Shown: positions 24,074-58,564 of the stretch, piece by piece
Layout of the letters: each line of letters opens with the position of its first letter
Numbering within the stretch: the stretch's first letter is position 1
NCBI GenBank assembly: GCA_002841685.1
Contig: PHAM01000001.1
Coordinates: 7,086-71,085, forward strand
Reading direction: 5' to 3'
Source of the DNA: Elusimicrobia bacterium HGW-Elusimicrobia-2
GTDB taxonomy: Bacteria > CG03
Length of the DNA stretch: 64,000 nucleotides
Notes under the pieces: generated by a model
The model's input: only the letters and a program-made list of their open reading frames with translations
Told to the model about the DNA's origin: nothing
Database searches by the model: none
Translations under genes and position numbers: made by a program

Positions 24074-25486
24074 TTATTTCTGCTTTTCCAAATCATAGCC
24101 CAATATGTTTAAAAGTTCATCCATGCGGTTAAAAAAATCCCACACCTCCCTGTGCAAAGGATTAAGTTTAACGGCTTTCAGAAGGAATTCCCTTGTTCGC
24201 AGAAAATCCCCTTTATCCAAAGACATCTGCGCGAAATTCAGGCTTTCTAAAAAGGTGACCTCAATATTCCCTGGATATTTTTTAGAGGCGGCCGATATAA
24301 TATCAGCGCATCGCTCATAATTACCGCCTTTGTAAAGAGACCACGCTTCATTGAGTTCCACCGAAGACTCCGACATATTTTTATCATCTTCAAAGCCCGG
24401 ATTCAGGAGTGCGGCTTGACTAAACAGGATTCCCGCTCTCTCTTTCTCACCCGCAGTCATCAGCCTTCTGGCCTCAGCCATAAGTTCCTGCGCTTTTTTC
24501 GACACCATCGCGGGGTCGAAACGGCGGGCCTTTTTAGCGCTGCGCGAGGCGGCGCGCTTCTTTCCGGAAGCGAGAAACTCAAAAGAGGAAGCCAATTCCG
24601 CCTCGCATATCAATGTCCCCGTTTCATCTTTCATCTTCTTCGCCTGTTCCATGGCGGGATCTTTTGCCAGAGCTTTTTCAAGATATTGAAAAGCCTTTTC
24701 AAATCTTCTTTTTTTGTAAGCGTCTTCCGCCTTTAAAAAATACTCGAGCGCCTTCTCTTCATCTTTGGCGCGCTGTTTATCGGATTTACCGAGATCCGAC
24801 GATTCCGCCTCCGAGAGCTTTTTCAGCAGCTGTTTTCTCAATTTGGCGGCGGCGTTGTTGGCCGGGTCCAGCTTGAGCGCGTCATTCGCCAGGCCCAGCG
24901 CTTTCACGGGATTGGCGGATAGCCGCATGGCTTCCGTATATTTCTGAGCGGCGATTTTTTTCTTTTCGCCTATAACGCTGCTGTAAAGTTCCCTGAAAAA
25001 TGAGCTTTTGAGCAACGCTTTAAGCTTGAGCGCCTCATTGTTGCCGGGATCAAAAAACAGGATTTCGGAGGAGGACTCGGCGCACTGGACAGGATCCTGA
25101 GAGCTGAGAAAACTTTTGGCCTCTATGACTTTCTCCTCTATATACGAGAGAAAAACATCCACCGAAAGAGCTCTGCTATCTCCTATTTTCGCACGCGCGA
25201 TATCAAGCTCACCATTTCTGAAATATATCTCGGCCGCACGGCAAAGCCTCCTGGCCTCGTCATTCTTGATCTGCCCGTAAAGATCTATAGCGCGGGAATT
25301 TTTGGGGTATTTTTCAAGCGTTTTATATATCATATCCAGCGCGTTAGGCGTATTGCCCCGCTGATATTCCATAAGCGCCTTTTCTATCATCTTATCCTGA
25401 TCGGCATCGGGCGCAGCGGCGCTAAAAGCCGGCGCGCAAAAGCCCGCCATGAACAAAAATAATCCGCGCAAAAGCCAAATTCTCAT
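24074..25486 (-). CDS. TPR-repeat secreted protein
   Basis: Multiple TPR-like repeats; start moved to the Met preceding a signal peptide (MRIWLLRGLFLF...) because the longer ORF reads through an intergenic repeat element. Confidence 0.55.
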   Translation of the reverse strand: MRIWLLRGLFLFMAGFCAPAFSAAAPDADQDKMIEKALMEYQRGNTPNALDMIYKTLEKYPKNSRAIDLYGQIKNDEARRLCRAAEIYFRNGELDIARAKIGDSRALSVDVFLSYIEEKVIEAKSFLSSQDPVQCAESSSEILFFDPGNNEALKLKALLKSSFFRELYSSVIGEKKKIAAQKYTEAMRLSANPVKALGLANDALKLDPANNAAAKLRKQLLKKLSEAESSDLGKSDKQRAKDEEKALEYFLKAEDAYKKRRFEKAFQYLEKALAKDPAMEQAKKMKDETGTLICEAELASSFEFLASGKKRAASRSAKKARRFDPAMVSKKAQELMAEARRLMTAGEKERAGILFSQAALLNPGFEDDKNMSESSVELNEAWSLYKGGNYERCADIISAASKKYPGNIEVTFLESLNFAQMSLDKGDFLRTREFLLKAVKLNPLHREVWDFFNRMDELLNILGYDLEKQK

Positions 25487-25695
25487 AATCCCGGATCCAT
25501 CGGCAGTGAAAATTTTATATCGGGCAAGCATATCAGACGCTATCCGGAGCGGGCCATATGAGCGAGGAGTTTCGCGCCATGCTCCGAGCGAATTGGCAGC
25601 GAACCGCATACGTGAGCGGCCGTCTACGGATAGCGCGGGATGTGATCGACGGCTGTCGGATAATGATGTCCTGTGATATTGAGTTGATTCCGGCA

Positions 25696-26214
25696 TTATT
25701 CCCTTTCCGAAATTTCCCTCATCAGCGCGTCTATCTGCATGGACGCCTCAGCGGCCTGTTCCTGCAGTTTTTTCTCAAATTCCAGCGTCAGCCTCCTAAG
25801 TTCTTCCGCCTTCTGTTTTTCGTGTTTCGCCCCGGAGACGAGTGCGACGGCATCGGCATTTTTGGACGAGAGGGCAATATCCGCCTTAAGTTTTTCTATA
25901 ACGGAATTCTGCGAGGCGATCTCGGCCGAAAGAGAATCTACTTTTGCTCTCGCCGATTCCAGCCGGGAAGATAAATCCCTCTCTTTCACGGCGCTTTTTC
26001 TCAAATCATTTTTCATGTTCGCCAGAAGCCGTCCCACATCTCCCATCAGCCTTTCCTTTAAAGCGGGGCTCATTATAAGTTTGCGGGATATCTCAGTTTT
26101 CAATAAAGAATTTTCCTCTATGAGAGCGTTGATCTTCCTGTCTTTTTCATCCAGCTGTTTCTGCCATTCCATGATTCTGTCCTCTATATCCCGCTTTATC
26201 TGTTTGCTGTCCAT
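25696..26214 (-). CDS. Coiled-coil protein of unknown function
   Basis: Start trimmed to ATG at 26214 (GGAGAC RBS) to avoid overlap with the strongly supported methylthiotransferase gene; heptad-rich, no domain recognised. Confidence 0.4.
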   Translation of the reverse strand: MDSKQIKRDIEDRIMEWQKQLDEKDRKINALIEENSLLKTEISRKLIMSPALKERLMGDVGRLLANMKNDLRKSAVKERDLSSRLESARAKVDSLSAEIASQNSVIEKLKADIALSSKNADAVALVSGAKHEKQKAEELRRLTLEFEKKLQEQAAEASMQIDALMREISERE

Positions 26215-41268: not shown

Positions 41269-42315
41269 TTAGAGTTTGTCCGACATTGTCAAAGCCATAA
41301 TGGCTTTCTGAACATGAAGCCGGTTTTCGGCGATATCCAAAACTATGCTCCGTGGCCCCTGATTCACTTCACGCGTGACCTCGGCACCCTCGTCGACAGG
41401 CATGGGGTGGATGAATTTCGCCCCGGGATTTGCGGTTTTCATTTTTTCTTCATCGCAGATCCAGTCTTTGTACTTATCACTTGCGGCGCGCTTTATCTCG
41501 GCCTCTTTGCCTATCTCATAGAAGTCTTTACCGAACCAGTTGCGCGAATAAACATAATCAGCGCCCTTATACGCGGCCCTCGGATCGCCTTTGACGATCT
41601 CAAAAGTGCCGCCGGCGGCTTCAGCGTTTTTCTTCGCCTGCTCGACTATGTTTGCGGGAAGCGAATAGTTATCGTCCGGATAAGCCAGTTTCACATTGAC
41701 GCCCAGACGGGAGTTCAGAAGAAGGCTTTCGTGCACGGAACAATAGCTGCGGGCAAGAGCCCCTTTCGCCCAGGTTTGGACAATAGTCTTGCCTTTGGTG
41801 GGCTGATTGTTGTTGTGCTCCCTCATCCCCATGATATCGGCAAGGCCCTGGCAGGGATGATAGATATCATCCGCCATGTTGATTATCGGCACATCCGCAT
41901 GCTTGGCATATTCCCTGAGGATCTTGTTGCCGTCGCCGTAATTGTCAACGGAAGTTTCAAGGATCCTTATTCCTATGCCCACGGCGAACCTCGCCATGAC
42001 CTTCGCGGCGTCGTGAATCGTCTCACCCGCTACCTCGACTCCCTTCTTGACGCTCTTGAGCCTCATTGCCTTCGGCTCGATGAACTGGGCGTGTCCGCCG
42101 AGTTCCGTCGCCGCGGCCTCGAAAGACTGCCTGGTTCTGAGCGAAGGGTTATAGAAGAACATTATAAATGTCCTGAACGCTAACATACTGTTGTACGGTT
42201 CCCCGTAACGGTTCGCCTTCATCTTCACGGCCAGAGACAGTATTTCTTCTATTTCCTCAACCGAAAGTTCCTGCGTGGTCACAACATCTTTACCAAACAT
42301 TTTTGATTTTGCCAT
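41269..42315 (-). CDS. YgeW-family-like carbamoyltransferase paralog (divergent; HCLP replaced by 'IHPMPV')
   Basis: 'NPSLRTRQSFE' carbamoyl-phosphate motif, 'HPCQGLAD', 'TWAKG', 'KDWICDEEKM' shared with YgeW-type transcarbamylases; lacks canonical DVWxSMG and HCLP. Confidence 0.65.
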   Translation of the reverse strand: MAKSKMFGKDVVTTQELSVEEIEEILSLAVKMKANRYGEPYNSMLAFRTFIMFFYNPSLRTRQSFEAAATELGGHAQFIEPKAMRLKSVKKGVEVAGETIHDAAKVMARFAVGIGIRILETSVDNYGDGNKILREYAKHADVPIINMADDIYHPCQGLADIMGMREHNNNQPTKGKTIVQTWAKGALARSYCSVHESLLLNSRLGVNVKLAYPDDNYSLPANIVEQAKKNAEAAGGTFEIVKGDPRAAYKGADYVYSRNWFGKDFYEIGKEAEIKRAASDKYKDWICDEEKMKTANPGAKFIHPMPVDEGAEVTREVNQGPRSIVLDIAENRLHVQKAIMALTMSDKL

Positions 42316-42338: not shown

Positions 42339-43358
42339 TTATCTCATTGTCAAAGCCATAATGGCCTTCTGGGCATGAAGCCTGTTTTCCGCCTCATCAT
42401 TCACTATGGAAATCTTCGGATCGTCAATAAGCGCGTCCGTAACTTCAAATTTCCTTCTGGCCGGCAGACAGTGCATATACACGGCGCTTTCATTGGCTTT
42501 CTCAAAATGCTTATGAGAAATACACCAGTCTTTTTTATAATTAGGCCCGACTTTGGCGTGCTTATCAGGGTCACGCGCCCATGATTTGGCGTATATGACA
42601 TCCGCGTCTTTAGACGCTTTCCATATATCATGCTCTATGTTGAGAGAGCCGCCGCTGACCGCTGCGGCTTTTTTGGCATAGTCAACATAATCCTGATCAA
42701 CATCATAAAGTCCCGGCTCATCCGGATAAGCCAAAGTTATGTTCATTCCCAGAGCGCAGCCCGCGGATATCATCGTCTGCGGAACGCCCGCCGATTTTGC
42801 TCTCTCGTCATAAGCCCATGACATAACAATTTTCTTTCTTCTGACAGATTCCATTCCGCCGAACTTTTCTATCATCGTCAGAATATCGCCCATGATCTGG
42901 CAGGGATGTTCCTTGTCATCCAGCATATTGATGATCGGCACTTTTGAGAATTCCGCAAGACCTCTCAACACTTCGCGGGCATCGCCATACGCATAGGTTT
43001 CCGCACCCATCTGAGCTTTAAGATTATACAGCCGGATAGCAAAACCGTCCAGAAACCTTGATATCATCTCGGCCGTGTCTTTCCACGATTCCTTATGGGA
43101 AAGCTGAAGTTCCTCGGGGCTATATGTCTGTCCATTTCCTCCGAGCTGGGAAATACCGCTTGAAAACGAGAGCCTCGTCCTCGTTGACGGCGAAGCAAAA
43201 AGCATACCAAGATTTTTGCCGGCGAGAAGATGCTTCTGGCTTTCGCCGATGGCATTTCTCAATTTCAAATCCCTCGCGACCTCAAGTATGGTTTCAAGCT
43301 CCTCCTTACTAAAGTCCCTCACGCTGATAAAATCTCTACCCTTAAGGTTAGTGATCAT
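42339..43358 (-). CDS. YgeW-family transcarbamylase (unknown-substrate carbamoyltransferase)
   Basis: 'SPSTRTRLSF', 'HPCQIMGD', 'KKIVMSWAYDERAKSAGVPQ...MNITLAYPDEPGLYDV...DADVIYAKSWA...KDWCISHKHF...VYMHCLPA' matches E. coli YgeW block by block (recalled from memory); lacks OTC 'DVWxSMG'. Confidence 0.7.
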   Translation of the reverse strand: MITNLKGRDFISVRDFSKEELETILEVARDLKLRNAIGESQKHLLAGKNLGMLFASPSTRTRLSFSSGISQLGGNGQTYSPEELQLSHKESWKDTAEMISRFLDGFAIRLYNLKAQMGAETYAYGDAREVLRGLAEFSKVPIINMLDDKEHPCQIMGDILTMIEKFGGMESVRRKKIVMSWAYDERAKSAGVPQTMISAGCALGMNITLAYPDEPGLYDVDQDYVDYAKKAAAVSGGSLNIEHDIWKASKDADVIYAKSWARDPDKHAKVGPNYKKDWCISHKHFEKANESAVYMHCLPARRKFEVTDALIDDPKISIVNDEAENRLHAQKAIMALTMR

Positions 43359-46824: not shown

Positions 46825-49800
46825 TCATTTAATCGGCCATTGGGGGGTGGTTTGGTCGATTTCGGTCATCAGGCGGGAGGTTTCTTTCAGCACAACTACT
46901 ATTTTCTGCCAGTGCAGAACTTCGTCAAATGTCAGGAAACGGCCTTTTCTGCTTTTCAGCCATTTGTCCAAAACCTGATAGCCGCCGATATAGAAATTCC
47001 AGACTGCTGGTTCTATTCCTTCAAAATACTGTTCTTTGTTGATATAAATTCTTTTTGTTTTTTCTTCGTAATTTACTTTCACGACTTCGTTTTTTCCGGA
47101 AATCGGAAATCTTGTGATGAGTTTTTCCAGTGCAGGTGATTCCATCAGGTGAAGTGAGACAAGTTCCTTTCCTTTTTTAACAAGGTTTTTGAAACGTTCC
47201 CTGTCGGAAGTCAAAGGCGCACGGGGAAAATCTATTTTCAAAAATTCGGCATATCTTTTTCTGTATTCCGGCGAATGAAAGACCGCATAGATGTAATAGA
47301 AAATATCTTCGGGGCCGAATGTCTTTTTTAAATCCCCCTGGCCGTCTAAAACAAAATCAAGTTTCAGTTTCCCGCTGACTTCCCTGACAAACTCCGGCTT
47401 AATATTCGGCTGACGCTTTGATTCTGTCTCGTTCTGTTTCTCATCAGGATAAAGATACAACGGAAAAATATATCCTCTTTCTTTCGTTTTATTTGACACA
47501 TAACAGTCATCTGTAATACTGTTTGTCGCTAAAATATGCCGCCAATTATTTCCTGATAATTGACGACATAAGTACAATGCAACATTATTCCCAAAAAGCA
47601 TATGACGCATAACTTTTTCCCTTACACGCCAAACAACTGTTGGATGATAATAAATATTCCTTGTATCAAACGGTCGATATAGCAATTTATCAAAATAATC
47701 TTTCCAATTTTCAACACTTGTTAATTCTGCTCGCGCTTTTGATACTCTCCACGCATAATTTTCTGATAACTTAAACTTTTCTTTTATTTCTATATCGCTG
47801 AAAGTTTTGTCTCTGAAACATTCTATTCTTTCTTTTAACGGTTCCTTTTCAAAATCAATTACGAATTTATCTCGCGCAGTAACAATGCCTGTGCAGTTTA
47901 CCGGAAAAATATCTGTGATTTTCCAGTATTTTTCGTATTCACTTCGTCCTTCTTCGTTTCTTGGAATAAAGAAGTAATATGGACTATTGGGGCTGAGTTC
48001 TTTATAATTTGTTTTATTAATATCGTTTTCTGAAAGAATTTCATATTTACTATCCCTCGTCCCCCACAAATCTGCATAATAAATTTTTGCCGGGCCTTCG
48101 GCTTTCTGTTTTTTTACGAATAAATTTATTGCAACACCCTGCTGTATGTCAAAAACATTTTCGTCTTTTGTGCCGTCGGGACATTTCTCCTTTTTCTTCG
48201 CATTGCCGTGCAGATTGAGAATATATATTTCCGAAAATGTATTGAGCAAAGACTGTCTCATTCCACGGAATGTGGGATTATCAAGGTAAGCGTGATTTGT
48301 TATTATTCCCACAACGCCCTGGCCTGTCCTGTCAATCTTCCACTGCGCGAAGCGGATGAACTTCACATAATCGTCCTGTAACCAGACTTTTCTCTCGTTC
48401 AAAGGTTTACCGTCAATGAATTTATAATCGTCTATTAGTTTTGTTATCCATTTTCCCATATTCGCGGATATACCGGAATAGGGGGGATTGCCGAGGATTG
48501 CCATTATCGGCACTTCGTTTTTTACTCTTGCGGCCTGGGCGGATTCTTCGGCTATGAACTGCGCGAATAGAGGCAGGTCTTTGTGCTCTGCTTCGCTTAG
48601 AGTGTTTGTGAGATAAATTCCAAGACGCTGGTCTGAATCAAATTTGTAGCCGGTCTCCTGCAGGAGGAGTCCGAGTTTCAAATGAGCGACCGTATAAGGC
48701 GCCATCAGAAGTTCAAATCCGAAGACTCTTTTCAGGAGATGCTCCGCTACATATTCGTCCCACACTCCCTTTTGTCCGTCTTTTTCCATCTTGTCATAGA
48801 TCAGTTTTATGACAGAGTACAGGAATGTTCCCGTTCCGCAGGCAGGGTCAAGAATAAATGTCTTTGAGTCCGCAAGCCCCTGCGGCCGTCTGAAACTCTT
48901 CTTAAGAATACTGTCAAGAGAACGGACAATGAATGAGACCACAGGTTCCGGCGTGTAGTAAACCCCGCGGGATTCCCTGAGCTTGGAGTCATAGGCGGCA
49001 AGAAATGTCTCGTAAAAATGGACGACAGGGTCTTCTTTCTTTGTCTTTACCCCGAAATCCTTTAAAATCTCCTTGATGTCGGATACGGAAAGAAGCTGGG
49101 CGAGGTCGTCAACAAGCCAAGCAATCCTGTCGTCAAGGTCGGGGCCTGCGATGTGGTTGAAAAGTTTCCTTAAGAACGGGTTTGTCTTTGGAAGGAGAAA
49201 AGCCGAGTGCTCACGGGTAAATTCTTTTTCGTCCGGCATATTGCACCGCGCCGCAAACAATCCGTAGGCGATTGTCTGGCTGTATAAATCGGCAAAGCTT
49301 TCCTGCCTTAAGCCCTGAATCAGTATTTCACGAAAGGCTTCATACTGGGAATGGAGAGTCCCTTTTTCCTGCTCTTTTTCAAAAGCCGCATTTATCAAAT
49401 CCCGGATCATTTGGGTTATCTGAGCCATACGCACCGCAAGTTTTTTAGGGCTTTTTATTTTTTCAGGAAGGACACAGAGAAAAGATTGGATAATTTTAAT
49501 AAACTGATCTTCATTCCTGTGCAGTAGGTTGACCTTCCCGGAAGAATCACACTCCCCTATGATTACGGTTTCCGCTCTTTCCCCGTTTACGTAGCGTCGG
49601 AATTCAAGATAATCAGTCAGTATTAAATTTGATAATGATGTGCGGTATCTTTTTAACTGCTCTGATTTTTCTATCTCGTCCAGACTCTTGCCTATGTCTT
49701 TCGTTTCAATATATCCAACCGTCAGTTTTTTCTTTGTGATGATAAAATCCGGAGCGCCGCAAGCGACTCTCTTGGGTTCGTTTATGGCAGAAATCCCGGC

Positions 49801-49914
49801 TTCAAAAGATTCAATCAATGTTTTCAGCGCCGGGCGATATGTATGCTCGCCCGCCTGGCCTGTCTTAAGGTTTTTCTGTATCTCCGATAAGTAGTTTTTT
49901 ATGTTAGCTGTCAT
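46825..49914 (-). CDS. MmeI-family single-polypeptide type IIG/IIL restriction-modification enzyme (endonuclease + N6-adenine methyltransferase + TRD)
   Basis: N-terminal PD-(D/E)xK 'PDFII...YIETKDIGKSLD' (cf. MmeI 'IEMKSRGKDLD'), SAM motif I 'DPACGTGTFL' (MmeI 'DPACGCGNFL'), catalytic 'ILGNPPYSG'; 1029 aa. Confidence 0.85.
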   Translation of the reverse strand: MTANIKNYLSEIQKNLKTGQAGEHTYRPALKTLIESFEAGISAINEPKRVACGAPDFIITKKKLTVGYIETKDIGKSLDEIEKSEQLKRYRTSLSNLILTDYLEFRRYVNGERAETVIIGECDSSGKVNLLHRNEDQFIKIIQSFLCVLPEKIKSPKKLAVRMAQITQMIRDLINAAFEKEQEKGTLHSQYEAFREILIQGLRQESFADLYSQTIAYGLFAARCNMPDEKEFTREHSAFLLPKTNPFLRKLFNHIAGPDLDDRIAWLVDDLAQLLSVSDIKEILKDFGVKTKKEDPVVHFYETFLAAYDSKLRESRGVYYTPEPVVSFIVRSLDSILKKSFRRPQGLADSKTFILDPACGTGTFLYSVIKLIYDKMEKDGQKGVWDEYVAEHLLKRVFGFELLMAPYTVAHLKLGLLLQETGYKFDSDQRLGIYLTNTLSEAEHKDLPLFAQFIAEESAQAARVKNEVPIMAILGNPPYSGISANMGKWITKLIDDYKFIDGKPLNERKVWLQDDYVKFIRFAQWKIDRTGQGVVGIITNHAYLDNPTFRGMRQSLLNTFSEIYILNLHGNAKKKEKCPDGTKDENVFDIQQGVAINLFVKKQKAEGPAKIYYADLWGTRDSKYEILSENDINKTNYKELSPNSPYYFFIPRNEEGRSEYEKYWKITDIFPVNCTGIVTARDKFVIDFEKEPLKERIECFRDKTFSDIEIKEKFKLSENYAWRVSKARAELTSVENWKDYFDKLLYRPFDTRNIYYHPTVVWRVREKVMRHMLFGNNVALYLCRQLSGNNWRHILATNSITDDCYVSNKTKERGYIFPLYLYPDEKQNETESKRQPNIKPEFVREVSGKLKLDFVLDGQGDLKKTFGPEDIFYYIYAVFHSPEYRKRYAEFLKIDFPRAPLTSDRERFKNLVKKGKELVSLHLMESPALEKLITRFPISGKNEVVKVNYEEKTKRIYINKEQYFEGIEPAVWNFYIGGYQVLDKWLKSRKGRFLTFDEVLHWQKIVVVLKETSRLMTEIDQTTPQWPIK

Positions 49915-55127: not shown

Positions 55128-56330
55128 TCAGTCCTCCCAGTTTTCAATCAGATAATTTTTGTTTTCCTCAAAGATCCCGGCCTGCCGCCCCACAGCTTCG
55201 TCAACGCCGAGCTGCTCGCATTCTTTCAGAAAAGAATCCAGCCGGGCGTAATAAAAAGGCGTGATCAGCCCGACGAGCTTGAAACGGTCTTTTTTCCAGC
55301 GGTGGTAAATGCAGGCAAAATCATAGACGATCCTCGTCCACAGATCGGCGGAAAACATTTTGGAAGCATTGGCCTTTTTAAGCGAAGCGAAAGTGCTCTG
55401 CCGCAAAATGTCCTTCCATATCTTCATGAGATTCACGGATGAGGCCATGTATCTTTCAAAATAATCGTCGTTCCCGATGGCGAGCTTCGGGGGCGTCACT
55501 TCGTACGGCGCGTTGACAAAGGGGATGTCGCGGCTTCCCTTGACCATCTCCCATTTGTGGCAGTATCTTTCCATCAGCTTGAAACTTGTGCTGAGCACCT
55601 GGCGGAACATCGGACCCAACTGGTCGGGGCGGCGGCTGTCATGATCCTTGACGCCGAGAAAGCACTGCCCCGTGCGGAAAGACTCATTGGCCGCTATTGT
55701 CGTCATCCATATATCTATGCCGAATCTTGACACGTTGTTGTCCCAGTAAGCCCAGTCAAGGAAATACCTCACAAGAGGAGCCCTCATGCCGAAATCCCCT
55801 CCTATGGGCTGCCGCAGGCGCTGGCCATAAAGGGCTCTCGTCAAAGGATATGTTATCAGGTTTGTTATCGTGCCGTCCCTGTAATCCCTGACATAGTAAG
55901 GCGTGATGAAATCAAATTCTCCCGCCAGCAGCGGAGTGCCGAGATCCCTCAGCCATTCGGGGTTTATGCTTTTCAGATCAGCGTCAAAGAGCATCAGCAC
56001 CTTTGCTTTGAGGATACGCGCGGCTTCCATGATCGCCCTTAAAGCCATCCCCTTCCCAGCGAGTCCCCTGTATGTCGTGCACACCTTTTCGGATGAGGCG
56101 CTCTTGAATTTATCAAAAGCTATGTCCAGCGTGCTGTCGGTGGAATTACCGTCTGAGACCATTATAACGGACTTTGACTTCGGGAAATATTTGGACAGTC
56201 CCTTATCTACGGTTTTGAGGACACCGAGTATGGTCTTCTCATTGTTGAAAGACGGTATGCCGACAAGTATATCAACATGCTTCATCGTATGGAGCTGTTG
56301 ATGTATATTCGATCCTAAGCTGGACTTCAT
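55128..56330 (-). CDS. Family 2 glycosyltransferase
   Basis: GT-A fold N-terminus 'ILVGIPSFNNEKTI...VIMVSDGNSTDST', DxD-like 'LFDADLK'; 400 aa. Confidence 0.6.
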   Translation of the reverse strand: MKSSLGSNIHQQLHTMKHVDILVGIPSFNNEKTILGVLKTVDKGLSKYFPKSKSVIMVSDGNSTDSTLDIAFDKFKSASSEKVCTTYRGLAGKGMALRAIMEAARILKAKVLMLFDADLKSINPEWLRDLGTPLLAGEFDFITPYYVRDYRDGTITNLITYPLTRALYGQRLRQPIGGDFGMRAPLVRYFLDWAYWDNNVSRFGIDIWMTTIAANESFRTGQCFLGVKDHDSRRPDQLGPMFRQVLSTSFKLMERYCHKWEMVKGSRDIPFVNAPYEVTPPKLAIGNDDYFERYMASSVNLMKIWKDILRQSTFASLKKANASKMFSADLWTRIVYDFACIYHRWKKDRFKLVGLITPFYYARLDSFLKECEQLGVDEAVGRQAGIFEENKNYLIENWED

Positions 56331-57271
56331 TTAAGGCCCCTCAGAAGAAAATGCAGTATCGCCTTCTGGAGATGCATCCTGTTGTGCGCCTGCGCGAACA
56401 CTATAGAGTTGGAAGAGTCCATCACCTCGTCGGTGAGTTCCTGTCCCCTGCGCGCAGGAAGACAATGCATCACGGACACATTTGCCGAAGCCTTGTCCAG
56501 CAGTTCTCTGTTCACCTGATACCTGCCGAAAAGTTTTTTTCTCTCCGCCTCTTCACCCTCATCGCCCATACTGGCCCACACATCGGTGTAAATAAATTCG
56601 GCGTCTTTCATGTATCCGGGGTCTATCTCGCTGGACGAATAAATGCCCTGATTCACTTTTTTGACAGCTTCAAATTCAGACTCGTCAAACATGAATTTCT
56701 CAGGACAGATAATTCCGAATCTGTATCTGATTATTCCCGAAAGGTTGAGAAGTGACCGGCTCACATTGTTGGAGTCCCCCACGAATACCAGTTTGACTTT
56801 GCTGAAGTCGAAATCAAGAACGCTTTTTTCATCCAGCCCCTTTTTCTCACAGACCGTGAAAATATCCGCCAGCGCCTGACAGGGATGGAAGGATTTTGAA
56901 AGGCCGTTTATCACCGGCACGGAACTGTATTTCGCCAGGCCCTGCACATCTGAATCGCTCGTCGAGCGTATCATTATTACATCCACATAACCGGAAAGAG
57001 TTTGAGCCGTGTCGCCCACTGTTTCTCCGCGTGAAAGCTGCAGCTCGTTTCCGGAAAGATTTATAGCCCTTCCGCCGAGCTGATACATTCCCGCCTCAAA
57101 AGATACCCTTGTCCTCGTGGAGGGCTTCTGGAATATCATGGCCAGGATTTTTCCCTTCAGCGCGCCGGCATATTCACTCTGATTTTTCTTTATCCTGAAA
57201 GCGAGCGCGAAAAGTTCCCGCACCTCGTTTTCGCTAAGATCCGTCACCTCAACAATATCTCTTTTTTTCAT
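56327..57271 (-). CDS. argF: Ornithine carbamoyltransferase (canonical)
   Basis: 'STRTRVSFE', 'HPCQALAD', 'DVWASMG', 'HCLPARRG' canonical OTCase motifs; 314 aa. Confidence 0.85.
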   Translation of the reverse strand: MKKRDIVEVTDLSENEVRELFALAFRIKKNQSEYAGALKGKILAMIFQKPSTRTRVSFEAGMYQLGGRAINLSGNELQLSRGETVGDTAQTLSGYVDVIMIRSTSDSDVQGLAKYSSVPVINGLSKSFHPCQALADIFTVCEKKGLDEKSVLDFDFSKVKLVFVGDSNNVSRSLLNLSGIIRYRFGIICPEKFMFDESEFEAVKKVNQGIYSSSEIDPGYMKDAEFIYTDVWASMGDEGEEAERKKLFGRYQVNRELLDKASANVSVMHCLPARRGQELTDEVMDSSNSIVFAQAHNRMHLQKAILHFLLRGLK

Positions 57272-57392
57272 TTTCTCTTAAACCCCTTCTGTTTTCCGAG
57301 CCAATTCTATTTATGATTTCACTTTACAAAGCCCCACCCCTGTCATTTCGAGCGAAGCGAGAAATCTAAAATGCTTCTTAGCGCGAACTCAT

Positions 57393-58160
57393 TTATTCTT
57401 CCTCAAACGCGACTATGCGGCAGATGCACGATTCCCCGCCCTGAAATCTCCAGGGGAAACAACCTATTGTCGTGCGCTTGTTAAGAAGCTTGTCAACTTC
57501 TCCTCCTATATTCTCGGCGTGAATAATCTCCTGCGGAAAAAGCCTCACATGCATAAGCTGATAATGGTCTTCCGGGAACATATTATCCAGGCTTTTGCCG
57601 TATTTCTTTTTAAGATATGTGTCGCATTTAACCGCTTCCTTCGGCATCCAGTCTTTTATTTTTGTGTTCATGGGATGATCCGCAGAACCGCAGTCAACGC
57701 CCAGCCATTTCAGTTTCTTTTTCTCGCACCACTCGGCGAACTCCATCATCGGCCCGGGATGCCTGACCATATATCTCACCTCGTCGGCTTCCGGCTGGTC
57801 CCATGCGTATTTGTGATAGCCCGTGTTGATTATAACGATATCTCCTTCCTTCACTTCAACCCTGTCCTCAATATCTTTTGAGGTGTATATCCCGTAATCC
57901 TCGGCTATATCCGAAAGATCCACGATGACGCCGGGGCCGTAAAGAAAGCCGTTCAAAGGCAGGGAAGCTATGTCCTTGCCATGAGTGCAGAAATGCAGCG
58001 GGCCGTCCAGATGTGTGCCGACATGATTGGAATGGGTCAGCAGCTGGCCGTTGGCGCCGTTGGGCGCGAGCCTCTTGAAGAATTTGATCTGCAGGGGTTC
58101 GTAAGTCGGCCAGGCCGGAGTCAGATGACTGATGGGCTGAGATAAATCGTAAAGTTTCAT
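57393..58160 (-). CDS. Cyclase-family protein (kynurenine formamidase-like metal-dependent hydrolase)
   Basis: 'HSNHVGTHLDGPLHF' motif characteristic of the putative cyclase/arylformamidase family; start at ATG 58160 with GGAGG RBS. Confidence 0.75.
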   Translation of the reverse strand: MKLYDLSQPISHLTPAWPTYEPLQIKFFKRLAPNGANGQLLTHSNHVGTHLDGPLHFCTHGKDIASLPLNGFLYGPGVIVDLSDIAEDYGIYTSKDIEDRVEVKEGDIVIINTGYHKYAWDQPEADEVRYMVRHPGPMMEFAEWCEKKKLKWLGVDCGSADHPMNTKIKDWMPKEAVKCDTYLKKKYGKSLDNMFPEDHYQLMHVRLFPQEIIHAENIGGEVDKLLNKRTTIGCFPWRFQGGESCICRIVAFEEE

Positions 58161-58359
58161 AATATTTCCTCCATAGCGGGACAGTATAGCTCTCCCTAAC
58201 ACTACCAAAAGCATATTCCCGCGATTATATCATATGCGCGCTGTTTTTTCCAAATAAAAATTTACTTGGCTACAATGATACTAAGGGAAAAAGTGTATGA
58301 TATCCTCAAGTTTTGCCATGAAGAGCATTGTGAGAATATAAGGCAAGCACCGCGGATGG

Positions 58360-58436
58360 TATCCGGCGGGGCTCTATGAGCGAGGGCTTAACCCCGTTCC
58401 CGAAGCGAATTGAGAGCGAACCTCATACGTGAGCGT
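58360..58436 (+). repeat. ~78-nt conserved intergenic element, copy B (copy A at 25541..25618; partial copy 57346..57393)
   Basis: TATCCGG-GGGC-TATGAGCGAGG...CGAAGCGAATTG-GAGCGAACC-CATACGTGAGCG shared with 25541-25618 at ~75% identity with co-varying GGAG/CTCC vs GGG/CCC stem. Confidence 0.6.
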
Positions 58437-58564
58437 CCCCGACGAATATCTCCGGGGTGATTGCTTATGGCAGAATTTCAGTTAGTGTTCTGAAAGAAAG
58501 CTTCTGCGTGGAATTTATGATATAATAAAGTTTGTGATTATCGTTTACCGTGAAAGGGGAAAAT

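Follow-up and report, generated by a model that had tools for sequence, protein, structure and literature searches.

Identity and extent of the two copies

What kind of element stands twice, between unrelated genes, in the genome of an uncultured bacterium? The window analyzed here, a 64-kb stretch of contig PHAM01000001.1 from Elusimicrobia bacterium HGW-Elusimicrobia-2, holds two copies of an intergenic repeat, referred to here as copies A and B, for which a first-pass annotation had proposed two readings: a structured RNA or an array of protein-binding sites. We can say securely that these copies belong to a structured and conserved family that acts via a folded single strand of defined polarity, and that its copies are individually dispensable and free in their orientation. 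What the folded strand is made of, and what it does, can be answered more tentatively; our leading account is a low-copy, dispersed intergenic family whose working strand is most probably RNA and whose apex would dock a protein.

Copies A and B are homologous, as had been proposed. A blastn comparison of the window with short words aligned them at 75% identity over 105 nt (E=1e-15), and a covariance model scored the core of A (25544-25630) at 84.5 bits and the core of B (58362-58447) at 88.6 bits. The element had been put at about 78 nt in at least two copies; the two copies stand, but the length was too short, and the similarity between A and B runs past those limits at either end. Based on the minimum-free-energy fold and the covariance-model core, the whole hairpin of A is 116 nt long (25529..25644, + strand), and that of B, delimited by the same two lines together with promoter positions, is 126 nt long (58341..58466, + strand). 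The shared sequence blocks listed previously were present, except that copy A reads CGAGCGAATTG and not CGAAGCGAATTG.

Neither blastn nor, even at E<=10, the covariance model run without filters found a third copy or a half copy in the window. A 3'-half copy had been placed at 57346-57393, but it was missed both by blastn at word size 7 and by the filter-free model at E<=10. The source of that claim is a different small hairpin at 57340-57366, TCATTTCGAGCGAAGCGAGAAATC, which lies between the cyclase stop and the carbamoyltransferase start and is not a member of the family. This hairpin can pair as AUUUCGAGC-GAA-GCGAGAAAU with a tandem G·A, and it contains a GAGCGA string.

Both copies are intergenic, in agreement with the first-pass annotation. 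Copy A is flanked by the stop of a 172-aa hypothetical gene (25696, - strand) and the start of a TPR gene (25486, - strand) and is antisense to both. Copy B sits amid the divergent promoters of a cyclase gene (-) and cvfB (+), upstream of the conserved cvfB -10 box and outside the cvfB 5' untranslated region, and no gene is called over it in three public assemblies of the source genome. A 540-aa open reading frame (ORF) at 24074..25696 that covers copy A had been called a read-through artefact, and we agree, since the TPR gene call in a 91%-identical relative begins downstream of the element. One frame of the element happens to be free of stop codons, so ORF finders prolong the downstream gene and produce spurious N-terminal extensions. 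Long ORFs of this kind pass through the element at 24074-25696 (-) in the window and at L033:5669-7555, L038:1561-2847 and L070:2276-3607, where L-numbers denote loci that bear the element or are orthologous to its sites; gene callers skip the element.

A branched hairpin with tandem G·A helices

All copies share a single architecture on the strand that corresponds to the + strand of the window, referred to here as the GA strand: a long imperfect hairpin with a three-way junction at its tip. The members measure 112-130 nt, or 173 nt in a nested long form. The outer stem of 20-30 bp varies in sequence between copies while its pairing is kept, and it continues into helix P1, which is usually GGGG/CCCC. 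The linkers of the three-way junction are 0, 1 (A) and 2 nt long (G, then U or G). P2, a covarying helix of 6 bp, stacks on P3; a one-base A linker leads on to P4, and the two-base linker leads back to P1. Five variants of P2 were observed and all of them are paired (CUCUAU/AUUGAG, CUGUGU/ACCCAG, GCC[A]UAU/AUUGGC, CCC[A]UAU/AUAGGG and CUC[A]UAU/AUAGAG). The P3 consensus is 5'-GAGCGAGG with CC(C)G(N)AGCGA-3', which gives the pairs G·A, A·G, G-C, C-G, G·A, A·G, G-C and G-C, and P4 is GCGAAC/GUGAGC, with one tandem G·A, closing a loop of 7-9 nt that has an AC end. The four "GAGCGA" boxes of the element are the helix strands of P3 and P4, paired with one another via tandem sheared G·A.

In copy A, the 5' strand of the outer stem and P1 (25529..25552, +) pairs with 25620-25644, and the 5' strand of P2, GCC[A]UAU (25553..25559, +), pairs with AUUGGC at 25592-25597. 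The P3 arm (25560..25591, +) joins GAGCGAGGAG (25560-25569) to CUCCGAGCGA (25582-25591) around a loop at 25570-25581 through two tandem G·A/A·G steps and G-C pairs. The 3' strand of P2 is followed by the junction base A at 25598 (together 25592..25598, +), and then by the P4 arm (25599..25617, +), in which GCGAAC (25599-25604) pairs with GUGAGC (25612-25617) across the loop CGCAUAC (25605-25611). The junction bases GG (25618-25619) and the 3' strand of P1 and the outer stem complete the hairpin (25618..25644, +). Copy B follows the same path, with the P2 5' strand CUCUAU (58372..58377, +) pairing with AUUGAG at 58409-58414, a P3 arm (58378..58408, +) of GAGCGAGGG and CCCGAAGCGA in which a single bulged base separates the G·A steps, the P2 3' strand AUUGAG with the junction base A (58409..58415, +), a P4 arm of GCGAAC, loop CUCAUAC and GUGAGC (58416..58434, +), and the junction GU with the 3' strand of P1 and the outer stem (58435..58466, +). 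The pairing noted earlier between GGAG and CTCC in A, and GGG and CCC in B, is a real helix, namely P3.

Covariation and the working strand

RNAalifold, applied to an alignment of the nine group-1 copies, independently returned the same fold. Of its 34 pairs, 15 carry compensatory double changes, compared to 9.0±1.6 in shuffled alignments, and none of 500 shuffles reached 15. In these copies 93.8% of the alignment cells are paired, versus 34-45% when the partners are slid by 1-3 columns, and the covariation score was 0.349 against 0.175. The strongest compensatory changes are in the outer stem and P2, and helix 1 (the outer stem and P1) has double changes in 12 of 20 pairs. A simpler model tested on all 17 copies gave 82.6% paired versus 32-46%, despite a one-base register problem in the copies with a bulged A. 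The covariation is far above the shuffled and slid controls, so the element is base-paired as the structured-RNA proposal required; that proposal stands for the pairing, in a strand that may be RNA or single-stranded DNA. A protein-coding origin does not fit these data, as single-nucleotide indels, namely the bulged A and the bulge in P3, break the reading frame between copies, and the changes are paired and compensatory.

The non-Watson-Crick positions distinguish the two strands. Outer-stem mismatches are mainly of kinds that the GA strand tolerates, with A·G counted 18 times, G·U 15 times and G·G 8 times, whereas the mirror-image types C·U (5), A·C (5) and C·C (1) are rarer, and the GA strand is the better folder in 13 of 16 copies. 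This bias is equal in copies that are sense and antisense to their neighboring genes. The tandem G·A steps of P3 and P4 are invariant and are never changed to Watson-Crick pairs. In the P3 arm the G-C and C-G pairs are invariant across copies and G-C to G·U changes are seen; in P4 an A-U pair is replaced by G·U in three copies and the remainder is invariant. Because the mismatch counts are not independent events they are supportive and not proof, and in that sense they point to a single strand of GA polarity, which would fit RNA without specifying it.

A low-copy family of uncultured Elusimicrobiota

Further copies had been expected in related genomes, and they were found there. Scanning the block pattern over one genome per species, and a looser pattern over metagenomes, recovered about 16 distinct copies beyond A and B, all in Elusimicrobiota-type metagenome-assembled genomes (MAGs) and metagenomes. 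The block pattern gave nine true copies: L001 in MAG JAYEJT01, named Elusimicrobiota; L002 and L007 in VMTI01; L003, L005, L009 and L010 in JBDRMV01; and L008 and L011 in JBDRRS01. The looser pattern gave six more distinct copies in metagenomes (L015, L025, L026, L027, L033 and L038), and L070, on a hydrothermal-vent metagenome contig, is one more; MAG SWCC01 and metagenomes Ga0180009 and Ga0180732 are also among the sources. Many metagenome matches and three genome matches were set aside as GAGCGA-rich tandem repeats or coding sequence of high GC content, and GAGCGAAGCGAG-like strings recurred often among the false positives from the metagenomes.

The same pattern scans found no copies in collections of viral contigs, phages and plasmids. 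Within the collections scanned, the element occurs only in a clade of uncultured Elusimicrobiota. Copy number is low, with two copies in the 64 kb of the window and none beyond the known ones in about 290 kb of flanking loci, and the flanks of more than 30 related loci held only the seeded copies, one degraded copy (28 bits) and one inverted orthologue. At the gathering thresholds of Rfam 15 (4227 models) only two tRNAs pass in the window; nothing was reported over A or B even at E<=10, or at E<=5 in five other loci that bear copies. A tRNA/tmRNA scan likewise found only two ordinary tRNAs in the window, both away from the element. Literature searches by taxon, motif words and sequence strings found no description of the element and returned only primer coincidences. 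The family would thus seem to be undescribed, matching no Rfam family nor any of the repeat families tested.

The neighbors of the copies are unrelated housekeeping genes, including the pairs lpxI and lpxB, and radical SAM and trxB-like, as well as SNase-like, aspartate oxidase-like, ABC transporter, TPR and cvfB genes. The only neighboring proteins that recur among copies are generic ABC ATPases, and no shared regulon and no neighboring regulator was seen. Orientation is also mixed: of the copies inside tandem gene pairs, about four are sense and four to five antisense, while three copies lie in divergent regions and one in a convergent region. The conserved downstream gene set that the first-pass annotation suggested looking for is thus not present.

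No sigma-70-like site stands at a fixed distance from the element, with scores equal to those of an opposite-strand control in a phylum whose promoter consensus is not established, and no terminator-like site is present at A or B. The 3' flanks of the copies are heterogeneous, and the homology between paralogues ends sharply at the base of the hairpin. The element does not have the form of an intrinsic terminator, in which a G+C-rich hairpin is followed by a U tract, and three copies lie amid divergent promoters. A replication-strand bias was not apparent, as the sign of the GC skew tracks local gene orientation and is inconsistent.

Loss, decay and inversion at orthologous sites

Three sites could be compared between genomes. 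Site A, between the 172-aa hypothetical gene and the TPR gene, holds an intact element in the window and in VMTI01 (about 68% protein identity) and no element in an 87% relative. In the 91% relative, represented by two independent assemblies (L055:3045-3215 and L056), the element is present with two internal segments replaced and scores 28 bits. Its outer stems are near-identical to those of copy A, an AG has given way to a 23-nt GC-rich insert that contains a palindrome, and the region from the P3 3' strand through the P2 3' strand to the P4 5' strand is swapped for an unrelated 46-nt stretch. Two other relatives keep only an arm of 19-21 nt, of marginal significance but in the expected place and orientation. 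A solo 20-nt copy of the 5' arm (90% identical) also lies at L007:271-292, 15 nt downstream of a complete element and in the same orientation, and solo arms like this one are the sole remains at site A in L060/L061 and L062.

At site B, between the cyclase gene and cvfB, the element is found only in the window genome and is missing from five relatives with CvfB identities of 83-88%. Remnants picked out by eye at this site in L066 and L068 were not significant by blastn and were dropped.

The third site, between a 260-aa gene and an M23 peptidase gene, holds the element in SWCC01 (L038:2733-2861) and in the vent contig (L070:2290-2437), and lacks it in VMTI01 (L069), where the neighboring protein is 79% identical. 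The L038 and L070 copies are of the same subtype and have the same locus-specific outer repeats, AAGAGC...GCTCTT, but they are in opposite orientation. They differ at one of 87 core positions and at 6 of about 121 positions of the hairpin, although the protein encoded next to them has only 76% identity and their non-coding flanks toward the upstream gene cannot be aligned. Five of the six differences fall in three stem pairs that all remain paired: two of these pairs have compensatory double changes, and the third changes from G-C to G·U on the GA strand. The opposite orientation suggests an in-place inversion by recombination between the hairpin arms. Either the element was held under strong purifying selection in place and flipped by arm recombination, or two insertions may have occurred into the same palindrome. 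That copies occur in either orientation, invert in place, and are lost or decay at orthologous sites indicates that single copies are dispensable.

Unit ends, flanking repeats and the nested form

Three copies have their unit ends in common. L033 and L038, from the same MAG, and L015 have identical ends, CGGCAGATGG...CTCTGCCG (CGGCAGA.../...TCTGCCG), and beyond these the flanks are unrelated to each other and self-complementary (TTTATTA/TAATAAA, CAAAGAG/CTCTTTG and CAATC/G[T]ATTG). Such flanks would fit either insertion at the center of a short palindrome or outward growth of the stem by template switching. The P2 subtype tends to be common to the copies of one genome.

A long form of 173-182 nt was found at different loci in two MAGs, between radical SAM and trxB-like genes and between lpxI and lpxB (L003:2130-2311, +; L008:1589-1761, -). 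Here a complete element takes the place of the P4 loop of an outer module. The outer module itself has no apex: it keeps GGGGCUG...AGCGAAC...GAGCGUCCCC and has UUUUUC where the P2-P3 arm would be.

Flanking direct repeats, sought as target-site duplications, were at most 5-8 nt and did not exceed those of shuffled sequences in 16 of 17 copies. The remaining copy, at L002:3290-3559, is the only one with a flanking repeat of this kind: CGAGTCCCTGCACCGCTACCATAAATT, a direct repeat that is 27 bp long and perfect, stands on either side of the element and its short flanks, with a spacing of 243 bp. An insertion of about 60 nt separates the core from the 3' arm in this copy.

Possible functions of the folded strand

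Taken together, we tentatively favor a dispersed family whose working form would be the folded GA strand, most probably as RNA. In this model the near-invariant, GA-rich apex would be a docking surface for a protein or for a tertiary contact, and the long stem would be merely a stable double-stranded handle. RNA is preferred because functional RNAs typically show tandem sheared G·A pairs, G·U wobbles and invariant bases at a tight junction, and selection in place is favored by the orthologous L038/L070 pair. The choice of RNA over single-stranded DNA, the docking of a protein and the origin of new copies are what we infer.

Several points weigh against this model. The covariation fits RNA and single-stranded DNA alike, and thermodynamics alone are weak, with modest folding-energy z-scores of -1.6 and -2.2. 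With no conserved promoter or terminator and with homology that stops at the hairpin, there is no evident route to transcription of the GA strand in the roughly half of copies that are antisense. The search patterns required the conserved boxes, so the conservation seen across the family is partly a matter of ascertainment. Finally, the loss, rearrangement and arm-only remnants at orthologous sites in close relatives are the usual pattern of a selfish repeat.

The main rival is possible but on our reading doubtful. It holds that the element is a non-autonomous mobile or duplicative DNA element, read as folded single-stranded DNA by a HUH endonuclease or transposase, or by a recombinase, acting in trans; new copies would land at the centers of short palindromes, with RNA, if made, only incidental. 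Dispersal in both orientations over unrelated housekeeping intergenic regions is consistent with this, as are the presence, absence, remnants and rearranged copy at orthologous sites, the nested long form at two loci in two MAGs, the identical unit ends of L033, L038 and L015 within unrelated yet self-complementary flanks, the P2 subtype common to copies of one genome, and a unit that travels without a promoter. G·T and G·A mismatches are tolerated in DNA hairpins too. However, no target-site duplication was seen except the 27-bp repeat at L002, near-identical copies within a genome were not seen and copies are few, and neither a transposase, a reverse transcriptase nor an HUH gene is present in the 64-kb window. 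The absence of copies from the viral, phage and plasmid collections also argues against mobility, and the 99% core identity of the orthologous pair suggests selection in place and not turnover, although independent insertion into the same palindrome is possible.

In behavior the element is akin to the long palindromic repeats ERIC, Correia and REP. ERIC/IRU, YPAL and Correia (NEMIS) elements are long palindromic intergenic repeats of enterobacteria, Yersinia and Neisseria. Like the element described here, they are non-coding imperfect palindromes of about 100-170 nt that are confined to the spaces between genes, lie in either orientation, can fold into long hairpins once transcribed and vary in presence between relatives. 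They differ in being conserved over their whole length, with defined terminal inverted repeats and tens to hundreds of copies, and Correia elements have a TA target duplication, of which none was seen here. In contrast to ERIC and Correia, the conserved part of the present element is a branched, asymmetric and covarying apex, its stems vary and its copy number is low. It also lacks the marks of a miniature inverted-repeat transposable element, with no general target-site duplication, outer stems that differ, and copies that are few and diverged within a genome.

REP/BIME sequences and REPINs with their RAYT proteins resemble the element as dispersed extragenic palindromes whose function and mobility run via a folded strand with strand-specific mismatches and which persist for long periods in a lineage. 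REPs, however, are simple hairpins of 20-40 nt with a conserved GTAG, present in hundreds of copies and flanking a RAYT gene. Here a branched apex tops a unit of 112-130 nt, the GTAG position reads GGAG, GTAG, ATAG or GGCG depending on the copy, and no RAYT (Y1 HUH) gene was found in the 64-kb window, in an analysis that covered this stretch of the source genome and 2-15 kb pieces of the others. The T-shaped hairpin at the inverted terminal repeat (ITR) of adeno-associated virus (AAV), a parvovirus, has a long palindromic stem with two small arms, a likeness that is one of resemblance only, and the AAV Rep-binding element has GAGC-type repeats but is Watson-Crick paired within the stem and stands at genome ends. 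Both the AAV ITR and integron attC sites are folded single strands with strand-specific extrahelical or mismatched bases that are read by HUH or tyrosine recombinase enzymes. In attC sites the outer ends are conserved (RYYYAAC/GTTRRRY), the center is variable and the sites form cassette arrays, whereas the present element has a conserved center, variable ends and solitary copies among housekeeping genes.

A bolder version of the folded-strand model, which we consider unlikely, is that the family represents a new functional class of folded nucleic acid. It might be a self-cleaving or protein-scaffolding RNA in which three tandem-G·A helices form the docking platform, or a "T-shaped hairpin" read as single-stranded or cruciform DNA. 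In either form the asymmetric apex would flip in place when its own arms recombine, which would keep the fold of one strand selected whatever the orientation of the host gene.

We think it very unlikely that the element represents a small self-cleaving ribozyme of a new class. Small ribozymes such as hammerhead and twister, and the Weinberg-type RNA motifs found by comparative genomics, share with it a compact junction, invariant nucleotides, covarying stems and a scattered distribution without a conserved neighbor. Hammerhead and twister ribozymes, too, are dispersed among bacterial intergenic regions with no link to particular genes, and tandem G·A pairs beside helices also occur in the hammerhead core. 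Such a class would be in keeping with covarying stems that meet at a compact multi-helix junction, with invariant bases that are unpaired or form non-canonical pairs, and with several dispersed copies per genome in either orientation. The element differs from these motifs in its core, its very long closing stem and its unusual in-place inversion, and no Rfam ribozyme model matched it. The junction linkers are only 0, 1 and 2 nt long, and the conserved boxes are accounted for by helices. None of the known self-cleaving classes has its core here (e.g., CUGANGA...GAAA of the hammerhead), and nothing marks a cleavage site. A hammerhead-like "UGA-helix-GAA" reading was tried and rejected, as there is no CUGA turn and the G·A steps lie away from the junction.

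A neutral relic is more improbable still. Under this account, an old quasi-palindrome without function would be kept paired by template-switch "palindrome correction". Loss and decay are indeed frequent, and template switching could yield perfect locus-specific outer stems. Correction from arm to arm cannot maintain an asymmetric, non-palindromic apex, though, and the apex shows one change in 87 nt between genomes whose neighboring protein is 76% identical, with the G·A mismatches kept and not "corrected".

A cis-regulatory leader or riboswitch for the TPR gene (A) or cvfB (B) is refuted as far as sequence evidence reaches. Both copies lie upstream of a gene start and the element is structured and conserved, and copy A had been assigned to the TPR leader. 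The conserved strand of A is the + strand, however, antisense to the TPR gene and to the other flanking gene, and B lies between divergent promoters and upstream of the conserved cvfB -10 box. Together with the mixed orientation across copies, this excludes a leader role, and the downstream genes are unrelated, the element is inverted between orthologous loci, and relatives lack it ahead of their TPR and cvfB orthologues.

The least probable account is the double-stranded DNA operator array proposed earlier, with the GAGCGA boxes as transcription-factor sites: four similar hexamers do stand in one orientation, but their spacings of 26, 12 and 15 nt are out of helical phase, the boxes are one another's pairing partners in a fold backed by covariation of the helices on both sides, the compensatory changes in P2 and the outer stem are unexplained by duplex-DNA binding, and no shared regulon or neighboring regulator accompanies them.

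Other features of the window and its relatives

A palindromic motif, CCTGCC...GGCAGG, was encountered at two of the orthologous loci. At L065:1798-1820 it reads CCTGCCTGCCGGCAGGCAGG and is inserted beside the cyclase start, from which it is absent in L064, and at L059:3055-3095 a related hairpin holds site A in place of the element. This motif may be a second small repeat family of these genomes.

The window also encodes three genes of the aspartate/ornithine carbamoyltransferase family (41269-42315, 42339-43358 and 56327-57271, all on the - strand), two of which are adjacent and lie beside an amino-acid kinase gene. The gene at 46825-49914 (-) encodes a Type ISP restriction-modification enzyme of 1029 aa, in which N6_Mtase and Type_ISP_C domains are present, and is followed by two small genes without a Pfam match.

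Significance

At a practical level, the element produces spurious long ORF calls, such as 24074..25696 in the window and similar calls in related contigs, and annotators are advised to mask it. Its architecture is unusual in placing three tandem-G·A helices at a tight three-way junction, and its evolution is unusual in combining a near-invariant sequence with copies that can be inverted and are individually dispensable. The family offers a case for studying selection on dispersed bacterial repeats and the in-place flipping of the core of hairpin repeats. If its fold is functional, the element would be a new motif, in structured RNA or single-stranded DNA, from an uncultured phylum of which little is known.

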